Shown here: positions 2,110 through 7,631 of the stretch, in pieces | Position numbering within the stretch: position 1 is the first letter of the stretch | Layout: every line of letters starts with the position of its first letter | Virus genome (UHGV): UHGV-1420163 | Source: a virus | Length of the DNA stretch: 36,018 bases | Reading direction: 5' to 3' (one strand) | Notes under the pieces: generated by a model | Databases searched by the model: none | What the model was told of the DNA's origin: nothing | Seen by the model: the letters and a program-made list of their open reading frames with translations, nothing else | Translations under genes and position numbers: made by a program

Positions 2110-3693
2110 TTAGATATTTGACACAGTATGACCGCACACTTTTGCCTGTAGAGCAAAGTTACACGAAGACATAGGCGAGCCACTGACGTTTGTCACTCTG
2201 ACGTACGCCTGAGTTCTGTCATTGGATATATATGCCTGCACGTGAACAACTGGCATTGAAATCGTGTTGGCGATCGGTACAACGTCAATAGTGTATGTAG
2301 ACCAGTCTGAAATGCTAAGCCCAAAAAGTTCCGTTACTGTCTTTTCAGCCGAGCCATTTACTGCTAGAGAACCCCATCCAACAGGGTTGTTTGTTGCGAA
2401 GAACTTAACTCCGCCGTCCAAATTCACCCTGTTTTTACTTTTTCCACTACCGTTACCCAAATAGAGCTTGTTTGAGTATGTGGCACCGAAATCGTCAACC
2501 CCCCATGGCGTTTCAGATGCCGAAATCTGGTGTATAAATGACCAACCTCCGTCTTGGGTGGTTTTGCGCCTAACAATAGGCGCAGATCCAGAGGCGAAAA
2601 TTGAATAAGTGGTTGCGTCAGTGATGTTTATACCTGTGATTGAGTCGAATATACGCAAGCCATATTGCCACTTGTAAAGGTTGTTTCGCAGGCGCTGAAC
2701 GCGAATACCATCCGCATTTGCGCAAGCTGTTAAATCCCCAATCCCCGCGATATACAGGCCCACATATTGACCGCCACCATCCAGAGTTCCGTCAACGTTC
2801 ATATCTAGTTCATAACCGTATATCTCATCTCCGGTCTTTAATCCATGTGCACTCGTTACCGAATTGAACGCCCACATACGTTGCTTGGCACAGTTAAAGC
2901 TCTCAATTCCAGAATACATAGCAACGAAGTTTTCAGATGAAGGTGCGTTAGCAGCTACATCATGCACCGCCATTTCAGCAATAAGTGATTGATGACTATA
3001 AATTCTTTCATACTCGGAATAATTTGGGTCGCTGGTCTTTCTTTGCCTGAATGCCGTACCGCCAAGAACATGCGCTGGATTAGTTCTAGTTTTTGGCAAA
3101 AATCCTGGTCGAGTCACGGTAATGTCAGGGCGATATAAAATTGTGCACTCTGCGCTCCTGTCGTATGTCACTGGGCCAGATAGAGTCACATCAACATCAA
3201 AAAATATAACGTTAGATGAATCGAAAGCAGCCTGAACCGCACTTTGATCACTAAGCCCACGGTTTTTAAAACTACTGACGGCAACCAAGGGATTATTTCC
3301 TAGCGACCCAACAAGCGAAGTTCCAGTGGGGCTGCTTAAATCAGTGCGAAGCATGTCTGGGTCATATTTCAAAACGTTAGGGTAGTAAAACTGCTGCACA
3401 TTGTATGCGTCGTAAACAGCCATACTGTGCCCCTCAATAGTCACAAACTTAGCGATTTGGCCGTTATAAACAGGATAACCACCTGAATTAATGATGACAG
3501 GCTGCGAGACAGGCACTACACTCCCATCTTCGTTCTGCAGGTATACCTGAATTTGATTTTCAGGAATGGTAGGATCTGTATCTATTTTTCCTATGTAAAT
3601 CTTCCCGTTAGCATTACCTTTGAATGATCGGGACTGTGTAAACAGTTGTGAAGGCATTGAAACAACAACGTTAGGCCTAATGGTATCAGTCAT
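2110..3693 (-). CDS. Tailspike with P22-type N-terminal head-binding domain and a divergent receptor-binding domain (527 aa)
   Basis: N-terminus [41 protein letters not shown]...NVLKYDPD matches recalled P22 gp9 head-binding domain; the rest does not resemble P22 endorhamnosidase. Confidence 0.85.
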
Positions 3694-3761
3694 TTGATGT
3701 GCTCCTGGCGCAATTAGTCCCCACAGCAGAGCTGCGGTATTCTTAGGTTAATCAACAAAAT

Positions 3762-3776
3762 AGACCACGATGGTCT
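3762..3776. promoter_or_regulatory. Mnt-operator-like palindrome between mnt and the tailspike start
   Basis: AGACCA-CGA-TGGTCT perfect inverted repeat, similar in form to the recalled P22 Omnt. Confidence 0.5.
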
Positions 3777-3839
3777 TATTGTGGATGCAAACAGTAGATC
3801 ATATGATGCCGATCCACTTACAAAAGTGAGGCATCAAAA

Positions 3840-4091
3840 ATGGGAAGAGATGACCCGCAATTTAATCTGCGGCTACCTTACGAATTAAAGGAAAAACTAA
3901 AACAGCGAGCCAAATCCAATGGCCGCTCTCTTAATTCAGAATTAGTTCAGATAGTGACTGATGCTGTATCAAAGCCATCCAAAATTTCAGGCTATCGAGA
4001 CGATGCGGAACGCATCGCTGATGAGCAGTCAGAGCTTGTTAAGAAGATGGTGTTTGATACGCTGAAGGATTTGTACAAAAAACCCACCTGA
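3840..4091 (+). CDS. mnt: Mnt repressor (ribbon-helix-helix), immI region
   Basis: 83 aa; PQFNLRLPYELKEKLKQRAKSNGRSLNSELVQIV and C-terminal DDAERIADEQSELVKKMVFDTLKDLYKK match recalled P22 Mnt. Confidence 0.85.
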   Translation: MGRDDPQFNLRLPYELKEKLKQRAKSNGRSLNSELVQIVTDAVSKPSKISGYRDDAERIADEQSELVKKMVFDTLKDLYKKPT

Positions 4092-4098
4092 AGGTGGG
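4083..4098. terminator. Hairpin between convergent mnt and lipoprotein genes
   Basis: CCCACCT-GA-AGGTGGG stem-loop containing the mnt stop codon; flanking A/T runs are weak. Confidence 0.4.
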
Positions 4099-4107
4099 TT
4101 CCATTTA

Positions 4108-4527
4108 TTAGTCTTGCTTTGTGGACGGTATAAGGGATGCATTTGCCTCTTTAGGCTTCAAGGTATACATCCCACCATTAAATGGATCTACAGCAAGCCA
4201 ACCAATTAACCCACCAAACACAAGGTTTCCACCAATATACCAACCATTAGCATTGGCTTTGATTGGCAGGGTAACTGGTTCGTACCCATCCTTTTCCATA
4301 GTGATCTGGTAGCTCTTTTTGCCAAAATAACTACCATCTGACTTGGCAAGAGTTACTCCTTGCGGGGTCTTGCCTTGCGCAACAATCACGCCTGATTCGT
4401 CTTTTACTTTAAAGCTCGCACCGGAAGGATTGCTGTTCACTTGCACGAGCTGTGTTTCGTCACCAACAATAGTTGCGCACCCAGATAACAATATAGCGCC
4501 AGCAACGACGCCGATAATCCTCTTCAT
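4108..4527 (-). CDS. Lipoprotein with PEGA-like domain and C-terminal glycine-zipper hydrophobic segment (139 aa)
   Basis: Signal peptide with lipobox LLSGC; NPSGASFKV...GKTP...GYEP pattern; C-terminal GWYIGGNLVFGGLIGWLAV. Confidence 0.7.
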   Translation of the reverse strand: MKRIIGVVAGAILLSGCATIVGDETQLVQVNSNPSGASFKVKDESGVIVAQGKTPQGVTLAKSDGSYFGKKSYQITMEKDGYEPVTLPIKANANGWYIGGNLVFGGLIGWLAVDPFNGGMYTLKPKEANASLIPSTKQD

Positions 4528-4661
4528 ATTACTTTCCGTTTTGTTAGAATCAGAAAGATCTTAATAATAAAAAGTATTTTCGTGAAGATATTGTCGATTG
4601 AGTTAATAACTCATTTACACCCAACAGTGCCATGATGGCAAAGATAAGGAGAGTTAATCAT

Positions 4662-5147
4662 ATGAAAAAATCACTGTTAATTATCCCGCTTCTGCTGGCA
4701 GGGTGTGCAAAGGTTAGCGACTATCAGGCAAATTGCGAACAACGCTATCCAAAGCTTAGCGATATGGCTAATTGCCTTGATGCTAGCGTGAAGAACGACT
4801 CACGCATGGCATCAGCTCCAACACCTAAGTTATATGTCCTTGCTGCGAAGATGCTCGGGCAAGGTGTAGATGAAGGCAAGATAAGTGACGCACAGGCAAG
4901 GCTTGAGCTTCAGAATCTTTATGTTCAATTACAAAGCCAAGAACAAGCCCAACAAATAGCACAAAGCCAAGCATTCCAGCAGGCTTTATTGAATTATCAG
5001 GCTGTAAACACAATGCAAGCGATCGAGCAAAAAGCGAGACAGCCTGTTATAACTCAACCCTATCCAACACGAGTTGACACTTACACAAACTGCAATTCAG
5101 GGTTTAGAAATACAGTCACATGCAACAGTAGCAGTAACATCAGATAA
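4662..5147 (+). CDS. Lipoprotein, Gln-rich central region, Cys-containing C-terminus (161 aa from ATG 4662)
   Basis: MKKSLLIIPLLLAGC lipobox; RBS TAAGGAGAG 8 nt upstream; track ORF starts 10 codons earlier without RBS. Confidence 0.65.
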   Translation: MKKSLLIIPLLLAGCAKVSDYQANCEQRYPKLSDMANCLDASVKNDSRMASAPTPKLYVLAAKMLGQGVDEGKISDAQARLELQNLYVQLQSQEQAQQIAQSQAFQQALLNYQAVNTMQAIEQKARQPVITQPYPTRVDTYTNCNSGFRNTVTCNSSSNIR

Positions 5148-5237: not shown

Positions 5238-7631
5238 CTATTCTGACAACGCATCAGACTTAGCCCCCTGCGTCATAGCGTTAATTGCCTTTTGTGCCTG
5301 CTGCATGGCTTTCTCAAACGCTGTCGATCCGCGTGGGGTGTTTGCCATTCGGAGCATTGCATTTCTGAATGGCTCACTCTCATAGGCGCGAGCAAGAAGG
5401 CCGTAGCTTACTGCTGCGCCAGTTGTCGCCGGGTTCATTGCCGTCCCATATCCGATAATGAACGGGATGGTTTGCTGCCCTGTTGGTGTTGTTACTGCCG
5501 CTTTTGCAGCCTGCTGCGTGGATTGCAGATAGTTTTTTAATCCTTTCAGATAAGCAGCATCCTGCCCCTTAAATGTGATGCCAGTCTGGTTTTGCAGGAT
5601 GTTAAGCTGCCGAAGGAACTGGTCAGGGGATCCGCCAGATTTCTCCATCGCCTTTCCAATGATGCCATTGCGCATTTGCGCCCTGCCAACACGACCAACT
5701 GAGTTATACAGCGTCTTAATTTCCGATTTGTTCTTGCTGAATAGCATGTTGTTGACAACTTCCGGCGTCAGGTCGCCTTTCATGAGAACATTCTTCAGCC
5801 TGGTATTCTTTAGTTTCGCCGCTTCGTCAGCGTAGACGGCATTGGCCTGCTGATATTTACGGAGAGTATCGTTGCCAAGATTCTGACCAATGGCACCATT
5901 GATATCGTCAGTCATTGCCTTGTAAACGCGCTGAATGGCAGCATCGGAACGGTTTGGTAACACTGGTCGCTCACCCTTCACGTCCATTCTGAACTGGCTG
6001 CGCAGGTCGCTTAATTGCTTCAAATCCAGATTTACCGGACCATCAGGGCCAGCATTGCGAACAAGCTCATCACGATATGACTGAAGTTTTGAAATTGTCT
6101 CGTTATCAGCTACCTTACCAAGCTTCTGCAGATTAGATATCTCAGTATCAATCTGCTGAATTGCTCGCGCAGGCTGAATGTTTACTCCAGCCATAGCATT
6201 CTGAACCTGCTCCAGTCGATTACCGGCGGCACGACGAATTCCTGATGTTTTCGCTTTAAGGCTGTCAATAACAACCGCTGGATCATACTCACCAAATTTA
6301 TCAGCAAATCTCTGCACCAACTGGCTTCTCGCTTCCTGTTGCGTTGCTCTCATTCCGCTTGTGCCAGCCAGAGGGATATTTTCTGCTGTAGTCTGCGCCA
6401 TTTTTCCGACGCGGGAAGTTGGTTGTAACAGGTCTGTGGTGTGCAGAGGAACTCCTTCACGCTCTGCAAATCTGATAGCCTGCTGCGCTTCTGGCGCAAT
6501 AGAACCACGAACGCCACGATAAGCAGCACCTAATCCACGTCCGGCAGCGTTAATAGCACCGCCAGCCAGCACACCAACGCCTAAATCGGTGGCGAGTGCT
6601 TCCGCATCATCTTTCGCACTATTTGCAGCAAGTGATCCAACTGCGTTTTCAGCGAGAAGGCGAGTTGCCCCCTGAGCAATTCGACCAGCAAGTGTTGGTG
6701 CCTGTGTTGCCGCTCTCTCAACGCCGGCAGGAGTGAGGTAAGGCAATGCTTCAGCAAATACCCTGCCCTCTGTCGTTTGTGGAGTCAGCGCACCTTGCTG
6801 AAGGCCAAAGTCCTGCTCTAATCCCTGCGTTGTTACTCGTGGCGCTGGGTGATATGTCCCATCGCCAATTCCGAGTTTACCGCCAGCCCAAGCCGCCGCG
6901 CTTGTTACAGCGTCAGTGAGTTCAGCAGGTATGTTCGCTACGTTGATTCCTGCCCGTAGTAAGCCGCGCCCGGTTTCAGCAAGTCCATTACCAAGGTCAG
7001 ACATTATTCCGCCTTGCTGCTGAACAGGTTTCGGTGCGACAGAACTTACGGGTTGAGGTGGCTGCTGACTGGCTGCCTGCTGCTCAATCTGAGCAAATGG
7101 ATTATTTGGGTCTGACTGCACACCTGATGCCGATACTTGTTCGGATGACTGTACTTCCAGTTGTGCAAACGGGTTGTTAGGGTCTTGCTGAGGATGTACC
7201 TTTGCAGAAGTGGCGCGCTGTTCGACTGTTGAGTCTGTCACCGGGTCACCAGCCCATTGAGCAAAGCGATCATCAACGTAACCGCGGCCTTCAGGTCCTG
7301 GCGTATATTCACCACGCTTTGCCTTCATAACGTTGCCGGGACCGTCGTGATAAGCCTGAAGAGCGTCACGCCAGTTACCAAACTGCTGGTACATCTTTGC
7401 CAGATAGCGCGCGCCAGCGTCAGCCTGATATTCGGGGTTTTGCATTTGCTCATCGGTATAACCCATATCACGCCATGTCCCAGGCATGACCTGAGTCAAT
7501 CCTACAGCCCCGGCGGAGCTTACTGCGGCAGGGTTGTAAGAAGACTCCTTGGCACCCAGTGCAGTCATCAACCCTTCTGGCACACCGTAACGTGCGCCAG
7601 CCTGCTCTAACAAATCACGGTAATTAGCCAT
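5238..7631 (-). CDS. Ejection/internal virion protein (gp16 position) with N-terminal lytic transglycosylase domain (797 aa)
   Basis: Last gene of the ejection-protein trio by synteny; N-terminal SLT-like motifs (AKESSYNP...VGLTQVMPGTW). Confidence 0.75.
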   Translation of the reverse strand: MANYRDLLEQAGARYGVPEGLMTALGAKESSYNPAAVSSAGAVGLTQVMPGTWRDMGYTDEQMQNPEYQADAGARYLAKMYQQFGNWRDALQAYHDGPGNVMKAKRGEYTPGPEGRGYVDDRFAQWAGDPVTDSTVEQRATSAKVHPQQDPNNPFAQLEVQSSEQVSASGVQSDPNNPFAQIEQQAASQQPPQPVSSVAPKPVQQQGGIMSDLGNGLAETGRGLLRAGINVANIPAELTDAVTSAAAWAGGKLGIGDGTYHPAPRVTTQGLEQDFGLQQGALTPQTTEGRVFAEALPYLTPAGVERAATQAPTLAGRIAQGATRLLAENAVGSLAANSAKDDAEALATDLGVGVLAGGAINAAGRGLGAAYRGVRGSIAPEAQQAIRFAEREGVPLHTTDLLQPTSRVGKMAQTTAENIPLAGTSGMRATQQEARSQLVQRFADKFGEYDPAVVIDSLKAKTSGIRRAAGNRLEQVQNAMAGVNIQPARAIQQIDTEISNLQKLGKVADNETISKLQSYRDELVRNAGPDGPVNLDLKQLSDLRSQFRMDVKGERPVLPNRSDAAIQRVYKAMTDDINGAIGQNLGNDTLRKYQQANAVYADEAAKLKNTRLKNVLMKGDLTPEVVNNMLFSKNKSEIKTLYNSVGRVGRAQMRNGIIGKAMEKSGGSPDQFLRQLNILQNQTGITFKGQDAAYLKGLKNYLQSTQQAAKAAVTTPTGQQTIPFIIGYGTAMNPATTGAAVSYGLLARAYESEPFRNAMLRMANTPRGSTAFEKAMQQAQKAINAMTQGAKSDALSE

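Follow-up and report, generated by a model that had tools for sequence, protein, structure and literature searches.

Two independently assorting lipoprotein genes in the gene 16-mnt interval of a P22-like Escherichia coli prophage as probable lysogenic-conversion morons

The present analysis concerns two small, divergently transcribed genes, hereafter called A and B, of the virus genome UHGV-1420163, whose whole stretch of 36,018 nucleotides (the window) is a P22-like (Lederbergvirus-type) prophage of Escherichia coli. Gene A (4108-4527, minus strand; 139 amino acids, aa) and gene B (4662-5147, plus strand; 161 aa) are exactly the two genes held by the interval between mnt and gene 16, and both are uncharacterised prophage lipoprotein morons that constitute neither a two-gene system nor a demonstrated exclusion mechanism. 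They probably represent (we put this at roughly 60%) two independent lysogenic-conversion moron cassettes, each encoding one small lipoprotein, in a hypervariable stretch of the phage genome. The features by which morons are recognized are all found here: (i) presence or absence in otherwise collinear relatives, (ii) terminator- and promoter-like sites, (iii) an atypical GC content (44-45% for A and B compared to 52% for gp16 and gp20), and (iv) expression in the lysogen with the late genes silent. A sequence-only reading had described two divergent lipoprotein genes lying between the last ejection-protein gene and mnt, at the position of sieA in P22, and had seen in them candidates for a new exclusion mechanism. 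Its description of the locus is accurate, as the open reading frames (ORFs) lie at these coordinates, their lipoboxes are conserved and the P22 record shows the same slot.

The gene contents of this slot were compared in the gene 16-mnt intervals of IMG/VR prophages retrieved with the A or the B protein (77 distinct sequences). Both genes occur together in 15 of them, B occurs without A in 36 and A without B in 26. In the slots devoid of A, B either stands alone or is joined by a 105-aa secreted protein or by two proteins, one HExxH-like (121 aa) and one of the KGG type (64 aa); in those devoid of B, A stands alone or beside a 122-aa protein. Among phages, epsilon34 has only A, accompanied by an hkcB-like membrane protein, and VSe13 has only B. 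A search of 5426 complete E. coli genomes found B in 186 (3.4%) and A in 124 (2.3%), and 25 of these 5426 genomes cover at least 80% of a 1.6-kb mnt-A-B-gene 16 query. The similarity of the window to the A module of epsilon34 stops about 10 bp 5′ of the A start codon (window 4537), and that to the B module of VSe13 starts about 17 bp 5′ of the B start codon (window 4645). Because similarity breaks so close to the start codons (10-17 bp), the recombination junctions are placed at the ribosome-binding sites, the promoters being swapped. The divergent spacer between the two genes (4528-4661, 134 bp, 30.6% GC), which holds the promoters of A and B, showed no similarity to the regions upstream of A or B in A-only or B-only slots, so that this promoter region is peculiar to slots in which A and B are combined. 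A and B are independently assorting genes, and the idea of a pair acting as a unit had to be abandoned since the genes are mostly found apart and the promoter region is combination-specific.

Overall, the slot serves as a bay for varied cargo, consisting of small proteins most of which are exported (IMG/VR loci L094-L253). Besides A and B, its cargo includes the 122-aa protein (MFLFISFGATAEC...), the 105-aa protein, which has a classical signal peptide, and the 121-aa HExxH-like protein paired with the 64-aa protein bearing the KGG motif. We considered whether the 122-aa companion of A is hkcB-like and rejected this, as the hkcB homologue of epsilon34 (gp14) differs from it, with an N-terminal transmembrane (TM) helix and a coiled coil.

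The 1.6 kb surrounding A and B share 99.9% identity with the PK6 strain chromosome and 97% with phage Gally, a prophage of E. coli LF82, and with vB_EcoP-720R6. Expression was examined in LF82 using published RNA sequencing (Misson et al. 2023, PMC9928086, tables S1/S4), in which levels are given as log2(fpkm+5), fpkm being fragments per kilobase per million reads. The orthologues used were GALLYPH_14 for A (100% identical protein) and GALLYPH_13 for B (97.5%). Expression of A is 4.8-6.2 in overnight lysogeny broth (LB), 9.8-10.5 in Dulbecco's modified Eagle medium (DMEM) and 11.0 after 1 h in macrophages, and that of B is 6.0-6.3, 7.9-8.2 and 10.3, respectively, while across all conditions the adjacent ejection gene remains at 3.6-4.2 and the C2 repressor at 8.9-12.0 (PMC9928086). 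In every condition of these Gally tables, A and B rank top after the C2 repressor, and from LB to DMEM or macrophages their levels rise about 10-30-fold to reach near-repressor levels. Since A and B are high while the adjacent ejection gene is low, transcription of both genes in the repressed prophage does not depend on the late operon, as established in the 97%-identical Gally. Such expression in the lysogen is a prerequisite for exclusion.

Regarding the signals that could drive this transcription, a promoter scan retrieved two sigma-70-like sites on the plus strand (4523-4550 and 4541-4568). A weak sigmaE-like motif, ACTT-N17-TCTGA, is present on the minus strand (4575-4550) and ends 22 nt before the start codon of A. 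Its distance is suitable, but it occurs at chance level, 1.5 such sites being expected per window. A sigmaE promoter for A is attractive given the stress-like induction of this gene but, in view of this motif frequency, was kept as an idea only. No PhoP-box-like site was found in 4528-4661, even when three mismatches were allowed.

A and B are genuine genes under strong purifying selection, with a ratio of nonsynonymous to synonymous substitution rates (dN/dS) of about 0.04, and not chance ORFs. This is shown by their many homologues (728 for A; 91 close and 254 distant ones for B), their full-length PHROG matches (phrog_6823 for A and phrog_6067 for B, both of unannotated function) and their low dN/dS (0.038 for 49 prophage alleles of A and 0.049 for 56 prophage alleles of B). 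The mechanical ORF of B starts at 4632. Because an AAGGAG ribosome-binding site is located 8 nt 5′ of the ATG at 4662, every B homologue begins with MKK and the RefSeq annotation is 486 nt long, this ATG is almost certainly the true start.

Both proteins begin with a basic n-region, a hydrophobic h-region and a lipobox of the form [LVI][ASTVI][GAS]C. The signal peptide and lipobox of A are encoded by 4477-4527 on the minus strand (MKRIIGVVAGAILLSGC, then the cleavage point, then AT; Cys17, with Ala at +2 and Thr at +3), and those of B by 4662-4706 on the plus strand (MKKSLLIIPLLLAGC, then the cleavage point, then AK; Cys15, with Ala at +2 and Lys at +3). A permissive lipobox regular expression matched 40 of the 40 aligned A homologues, 38 of which have the usual L/M/C-S/T/A-G-C type (LSGC 21, LTGC 9, others), LSAC and VGAC being found once each, and 35 of the 35 B-family sequences; over the A and B sets, a few matches are atypical or probably off-target (VGAC and LLCC). 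The lipid-attachment cysteine is invariant in both alignments, and the residues at +2 and +3 are AT in 37 of the 40 A homologues and Ala-Lys in 27 of the 35 B sequences. The absence of a lipidation signal on careful analysis had been named as grounds for dropping the exclusion idea; a lipobox is present in A, in B and in all aligned homologues. According to the +2 rule of enterobacteria, lipoproteins without Asp at +2 are transported via the Lol pathway to the outer membrane. Since both proteins carry Ala instead of this inner-membrane retention signal, A and B should be outer-membrane lipoproteins, sorted by Lol to the inner leaflet and facing the periplasm.

Beyond its signal peptide, A comprises a PEGA/transthyretin-like beta-sandwich and a Gly-rich hydrophobic C-terminal motif, and the AlphaFold2 (AF2) model gives a mostly beta periplasmic domain. 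The proposed PEGA-like nature of A survives in part, in that the fold is compatible with PEGA and a weak match exists, but this match (PF08308, 17.6 bits, E=0.0037) falls short of the 20.8-bit gathering cut-off. PEGA matches at E<=0.1 were obtained for 10 of the 40 A-family members, and the NCBIfam model LEPBI_I2678 weakly matches residues 68-133, below its curated cut-off. Structure comparisons against the PDB retrieved generic beta-sandwich folds, and PDB sequence profiles of the A family gave only weak, chance-level matches (best E=0.02). The PEGA-type fold is uninformative on function, and the invariant Gly-rich C-terminal motif distinguishes A from PEGA/transthyretin-like domains since it lies outside PEGA. 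This motif (conserved as NGWYIGGNxVFGGLIGWLxVDPFNGGMY, and as NGWYIGGN..FGGLIGWL.VDPFNGGMY in invariant alignment columns; residues 94-121, 4165-4248, minus strand) is the best-conserved section of the family. The glycine zipper that had been read into it did not withstand examination, although the motif is conserved: no Gly-zipper Pfam model matches A or any of the 40 homologues at E<=0.1, only a single GxxxG is present (G105-G109) in a weakly hydrophobic stretch, and the mean hydropathy over 19 residues is about 1.3, which is under the usual TM level. The predicted local distance difference test (pLDDT) scores of AF2 are only 50-64 in this motif, and the 26 residues that follow the hydrophobic stretch return to the beta-sandwich. 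The label "YceK" given by JGI to some A homologues was rejected, as Pfam scans of the 40 members found no YceK/DUF1375 match.

The A family has members with 50-80% identity in the Gamma-, Beta-, Zeta- and Deltaproteobacteria. In Erwiniaceae, the homologue is chromosomal, in a conserved neighbourhood (nrdHIE, a GNAT acetyltransferase, mmuP/mmuM and DUF883), and in Photorhabdus it is chromosomal between rimJ and murJ. An E. coli allele that is 68% identical to A (P0061, 445 contigs) is located between the genes for the tail chaperone G/T and the tape measure of HK97-like prophages, which is the slot occupied in HK97 by gp15, a known superinfection-exclusion moron (position taken from the HK97 GenBank annotation). 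Furthermore, in Proteus prophages a copy of A precedes the tape-measure gene in three of the four places shown, and in other lambda-like prophages the homologue lies between K and I. This distribution suggests that A is a captured proteobacterial envelope lipoprotein of housekeeping type that moves between moron slots of unrelated phage types. Homology to housekeeping lipoproteins had been set as a point that would count against exclusion; this is partly the case, as the A family is widespread on chromosomes, the homologues being themselves uncharacterised. The presence of A in two exclusion slots is suggestive, but both slots carry varied cargo, for instance a porin. HK97 gp15 sits in the inner membrane; it is a 62-aa protein unrelated to A in sequence and architecture, and the link between them is positional only. 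In the HK97-like prophages with an A homologue (L085-L088), a porin gene (Porin_1/Porin_4) lies between the tail genes M and L. An Arc/Bro-N/P22_AR_C antirepressor module is present in the tail region of four of the five HK97-like loci with an A homologue, and three of these four also have a Clp protease gene.

The mature B protein, as deduced from AF2 and alignments, consists of a helical domain with Cys25 and Cys38, a Gln-rich helix, a Pro-rich linker and a putative beta-hairpin with Cys144 and Cys154, all four of these cysteines being conserved. The earlier description of B as Gln-rich with C-terminal cysteines is borne out: residues 76-125 (4887-5036, plus strand), modelled by AF2 as a long single helix, include 15 Q in 50 residues, and Cys144 and Cys154 are conserved. 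Alignment with distant relatives identifies the Gln-rich segment as a length-variable spacer of the wider family. The Cys144-Cys154 hairpin (TNCNSGFRNTVTC; 5091-5123, plus strand) is supported by alignments, AF2 placing strands at 140-146 and 150-156 with low confidence, and is kept in the distant relatives as T-x-C...G-N-x-x-x-C. Fold searches with B yielded only generic helical bundles in the PDB and nothing among the viral structures of BFVD at E<=0.001, and PDB sequence profiles gave no match for the B family. One homologue bears the label "GspK", which was rejected because it relies on a 53-residue match in the Gln-rich region (18.7 bits compared to a 130-bit cut-off). In most distant relatives (P0216-P0287), an aromatic residue just past the Cys hairpin closes the chain (…C-x-S/T-Y, …NCW or …NCF), giving endings that resemble the outer-membrane beta-signal, whereas the B protein of the window ends differently (…CNSSSNIR). 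Among the enterobacterial B alleles, two C-terminal variants recombine with one head domain.

The close B family (91 clusters) is limited to Enterobacterales. Its members at 58-70% identity in Morganella, Yersinia and Serratia are carried by P22-like prophages, directly downstream of gene 16 and convergent with it, and on the mnt strand wherever mnt is present. All the close relatives that were checked (Morganella, Yersinia, Serratia and a Proteus phage record) lie in P22-like prophages at the position of sieA. A profile search places B, as the phage branch, within a wider family whose members are lipoproteins of 120-160 aa with a Cys-paired head, a variable spacer and a Cys hairpin. One relative, from Pectobacterium peruviense, is chromosomal and has holE on one side and ycgN/minCDE on the other, and a distant one lies near uvrC on a metagenomic contig, in a chromosomal context.

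The left border of the slot is mnt (3840-4091, plus strand), which encodes an Arc/Mnt-family repressor (Pfam Arc 2.8e-22, Repressor_Mnt 2.2e-18). A GC-rich hairpin found by a terminator scan between the convergent mnt and A (4081-4100) is likely a bidirectional intrinsic terminator, and the epsilon34 record annotates the same element as a Rho-independent terminator. The right border, convergent with B, is the gene of a 797-aa gp16-type ejection protein (5238-7631, minus strand; Pfam SLT 2.9e-25, phrog_770 DNA transfer protein 5e-239), beyond which lie the homologues of gp20 and gp7. In this protein, the SLT lytic transglycosylase domain (residues 7-110) is fused to a DNA-transfer-protein body. 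Its homologues have 665 aa in Gally and 893-901 aa in the SLT-bearing versions of Serratia, and those of Morganella and Yersinia have no Pfam domain. The ORF list of the window shows no arc, ant or sar beside mnt, which (window 3694-4091) encodes an "orphan" Mnt repressor without an antirepressor to control. In LF82, the orphan mnt is up 40-fold in macrophages, and its deletion left survival unchanged. The tailspike gene (2110-3693, minus strand), located left of mnt, encodes a short protein of 527 aa with a conserved P22 head-binding domain at its N-terminus and a receptor-binding part without family match. The tailspike of Gally (799 aa) differs from it, which implies a different O-antigen specificity. 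At the left edge, a Rfam search of the whole window gave as its sole match the 3′ part of a tRNA gene (1-51), cut at the window edge. It is directly followed by a tyrosine integrase gene (180-1373) pointing to the tailspike end, which suggests an attachment site at this edge and a layout of the int module unlike those of P22 and Gally.

In the P22 record, the gene 16-mnt interval is occupied by sieA, which is convergent with gene 16. B has both the position and the orientation of sieA, being on the mnt strand and convergent with gene 16, and the three properties of a SieA-type location (gene 16-gene 9 interval, convergence with gene 16, expression in the lysogen) are found in the window and, for expression, in Gally. 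SieA is polytopic, crossing the inner membrane with three TM-like segments, and has its FxRYPxEAxxFNK motif on the cytoplasmic side (Leavitt et al. 2024, PMC10883804), whereas neither of the lipoproteins A and B has an internal TM helix or any sequence similarity to it. As had been supposed, neither resembles SieA: tblastn with P22 SieA gave no match in the window or at any A/B locus, none of the slot ORFs has more than one TM-like segment and no sieA-like ORF exists in any A- or B-bearing slot examined. SieA homologues are reported only in P22-like prophages, sieA being carried by 22 of 66 sequenced P22-like phages (PMC10883804). B shares with SieA the slot and orientation, expression from the prophage and a spread in P22-like phages over a very similar list of genera. 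An exclusion phenotype is shown for SieA and is a conjecture for A and B.

Other phage lipoproteins provide further comparisons. Cor of phi80, N15 and HK022 and Llp of T5 are phage lipoproteins that block FhuA and are predicted to be in the outer membrane, on its periplasmic side. Llp needs a disulfide, and B may likewise. However, A and B are about twice as long as Cor and Llp, P22-like phages use the O-antigen and not FhuA, and the sole PHROG match pointing to Cor (phrog_1119, E=0.0034) covers residues 1-20, that is to say the signal peptide only. Bor/Iss of lambda is also an outer-membrane lipoprotein encoded by a prophage moron, expressed in the lysogen and, for the copy of the prophage Perceval, induced in DMEM as A and B are, but A and B show no sequence or family match to it and belong to another phage type and another slot. 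More broadly, no homology of A or B to Bor, Iss, TraT, SlyB or Gly-zipper families was found, B showed no likeness to Ivy, MliC or PliC in structure or sequence searches, and the defence models of PADLOC-DB v2 matched neither A, nor B, nor three other slot proteins at E<=0.1.

What these two morons do for their host or phage can be proposed separately for each. B is a better exclusion candidate than A because of its fidelity to P22-like phages and its occupation of the sieA position, and its likeliest job, which we nevertheless hold at somewhat less than even odds, is to exclude superinfecting P22-like phages, acting on the periplasmic side of the outer membrane. B would hinder either the conduit formed by the ejected gp7, gp20 and gp16 or an outer-membrane co-receptor, by means of an anatomy that would combine a disulfide-stabilised helical head, a spacer of variable length and a conserved Cys hairpin. 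For A, the chances are about even that it has a stress or fitness role, altering a general property of the outer membrane or envelope, and a role in exclusion is unlikely. The most ambitious form of the exclusion idea is likewise doubtful: B would represent a new, outer-membrane-anchored exclusion class, specific to P22-like phages and functionally replacing SieA, which would stop the assembly of the podovirus conduit (gp7/gp20/needle) or the ejected transglycosylase, and A would be a second, broader blocker, including in the HK97 gp15 slot.

Several points weigh against the reading of A and B as morons or against the exclusion role proposed with it. The authors of the Gally study list no morons for this prophage (PMC9928086), a verdict explained by the fact that A and B fall narrowly below their 5-fold LB cut-off (70 and 51 compared to 78 normalised counts). 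In the same study, the lipoprotein Bor of the LF82 prophage Perceval is also induced in DMEM (PMC9928086), and the induction of A and B resembles that of this fitness lipoprotein. The promoter scan gave no convincing sigma-70 promoter for A, lipidation and outer-membrane location are predictions for both proteins, and the confidence of AF2 is low precisely in the conserved motifs expected to carry the function. The literature searched (for the accessions and locus tags of these genes and for exclusion by lipoproteins among P22-like phages) contains no phenotype for A or B. Finally, the very low dN/dS and the chromosomal relatives of both families look more like envelope housekeeping than an arms race.

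Among the alternatives, the least unlikely is that A and B are host-fitness or virulence morons that remodel the outer membrane under host stress (serum, bile, antimicrobial peptides, phagosome), like Bor/Iss of lambda, SlyB or OsmB. The induction in DMEM and macrophages fits such a role equally well as it fits exclusion, and the rise of about 10-30-fold in LF82, the parallel induction of Perceval Bor, the conserved chromosomal neighbourhoods of the A family in Erwiniaceae and Photorhabdus, the chromosomal contexts of B-like proteins, the strong purifying selection and the weak sigmaE-like motif 5′ of A all go in this direction. However, a gene of benefit to the host would be expected to spread as A does, whereas the close relatives of B in four other genera are all in P22-like prophages and at one position. 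Neither protein is homologous to Bor, Iss, TraT, SlyB or Gly-zipper proteins, the promoter region has no PhoP box, the sigmaE-like motif is at chance level and the mnt deletion, which concerns the neighbouring gene and not A or B, did not change survival in macrophages. As an account of both genes together, it is rather unlikely.

Inhibition, by B (or A) in the periplasm, of the lytic transglycosylase brought by incoming ejection proteins, which would be a special case of exclusion following the logic of Ivy and MliC, is much less probable. The gp16 adjacent to B has an N-terminal SLT domain, as do those of the Serratia prophages with B, and a periplasmic location together with conserved disulfides is predicted for B. 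Nevertheless, in Morganella and Yersinia B adjoins a gp16 with no Pfam family on record and no SLT match, no likeness to Ivy, MliC or PliC was found, and the slot alone accounts for the adjacency of B and gp16. The two-component view, in which A and B would act together (for example as a complex) under co-regulation from a shared divergent promoter, has a slighter chance still. It would account for their adjacency and divergence over a common 134-bp AT-rich region, their co-induction in LF82 and the conservation of the A+B layout at 96-99% identity in the 25 complete E. coli genomes, Gally and vB_EcoP-720R6. It is largely refuted by gene distribution: both genes occur in only 15 of the 77 distinct slots, A occurs without B in siphophage prophages and chromosomes, in Morganella, Yersinia and Serratia B is found without A, next to mnt or to the gene of the tailspike, and the recombination breakpoints are at the ribosome-binding site of each gene. 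A lytic-cycle role, with A as a unimolecular spanin of the T1 gp11 type (for which its lipobox, C-terminal hydrophobic stretch and mostly beta periplasmic domain could speak) or A and B as virion or assembly accessories, is practically negligible and the spanin reading was rejected, since A is transcribed in the lysogen, where the late genes are silent, the stretch in question is only weakly hydrophobic (about 1.3) and followed by 26 residues back in the beta-sandwich (AF2) with no terminal TM domain, homologues of A are chromosomal outside prophages in several genera, and, in the gene order of the 97%-identical Gally, about 16 kb separate A and B from the genes for holin, lysin and Rz.

Considered as two independent moron cassettes, A and B are common in complete E. 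coli genomes and in many IMG/VR prophages, and they are annotated everywhere as hypothetical. They are the top transcripts after the repressor in a prophage of the Crohn's-associated strain LF82, especially inside macrophages. For genome scans, this locus teaches that the location of a gene in a known exclusion slot is no more than suggestive, as this slot is a general cargo bay. If B does exclude P22-like phages, it would constitute, beside SieA, a second and mechanistically distinct solution, acting at the outer and not the inner membrane, and would offer a new handle on the way in which podovirus ejection proteins cross the periplasm. If, instead, their role is in envelope fitness in the host, A and B would be lysogenic-conversion factors that have gone unrecognised in pathogenic E. 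coli and Salmonella.

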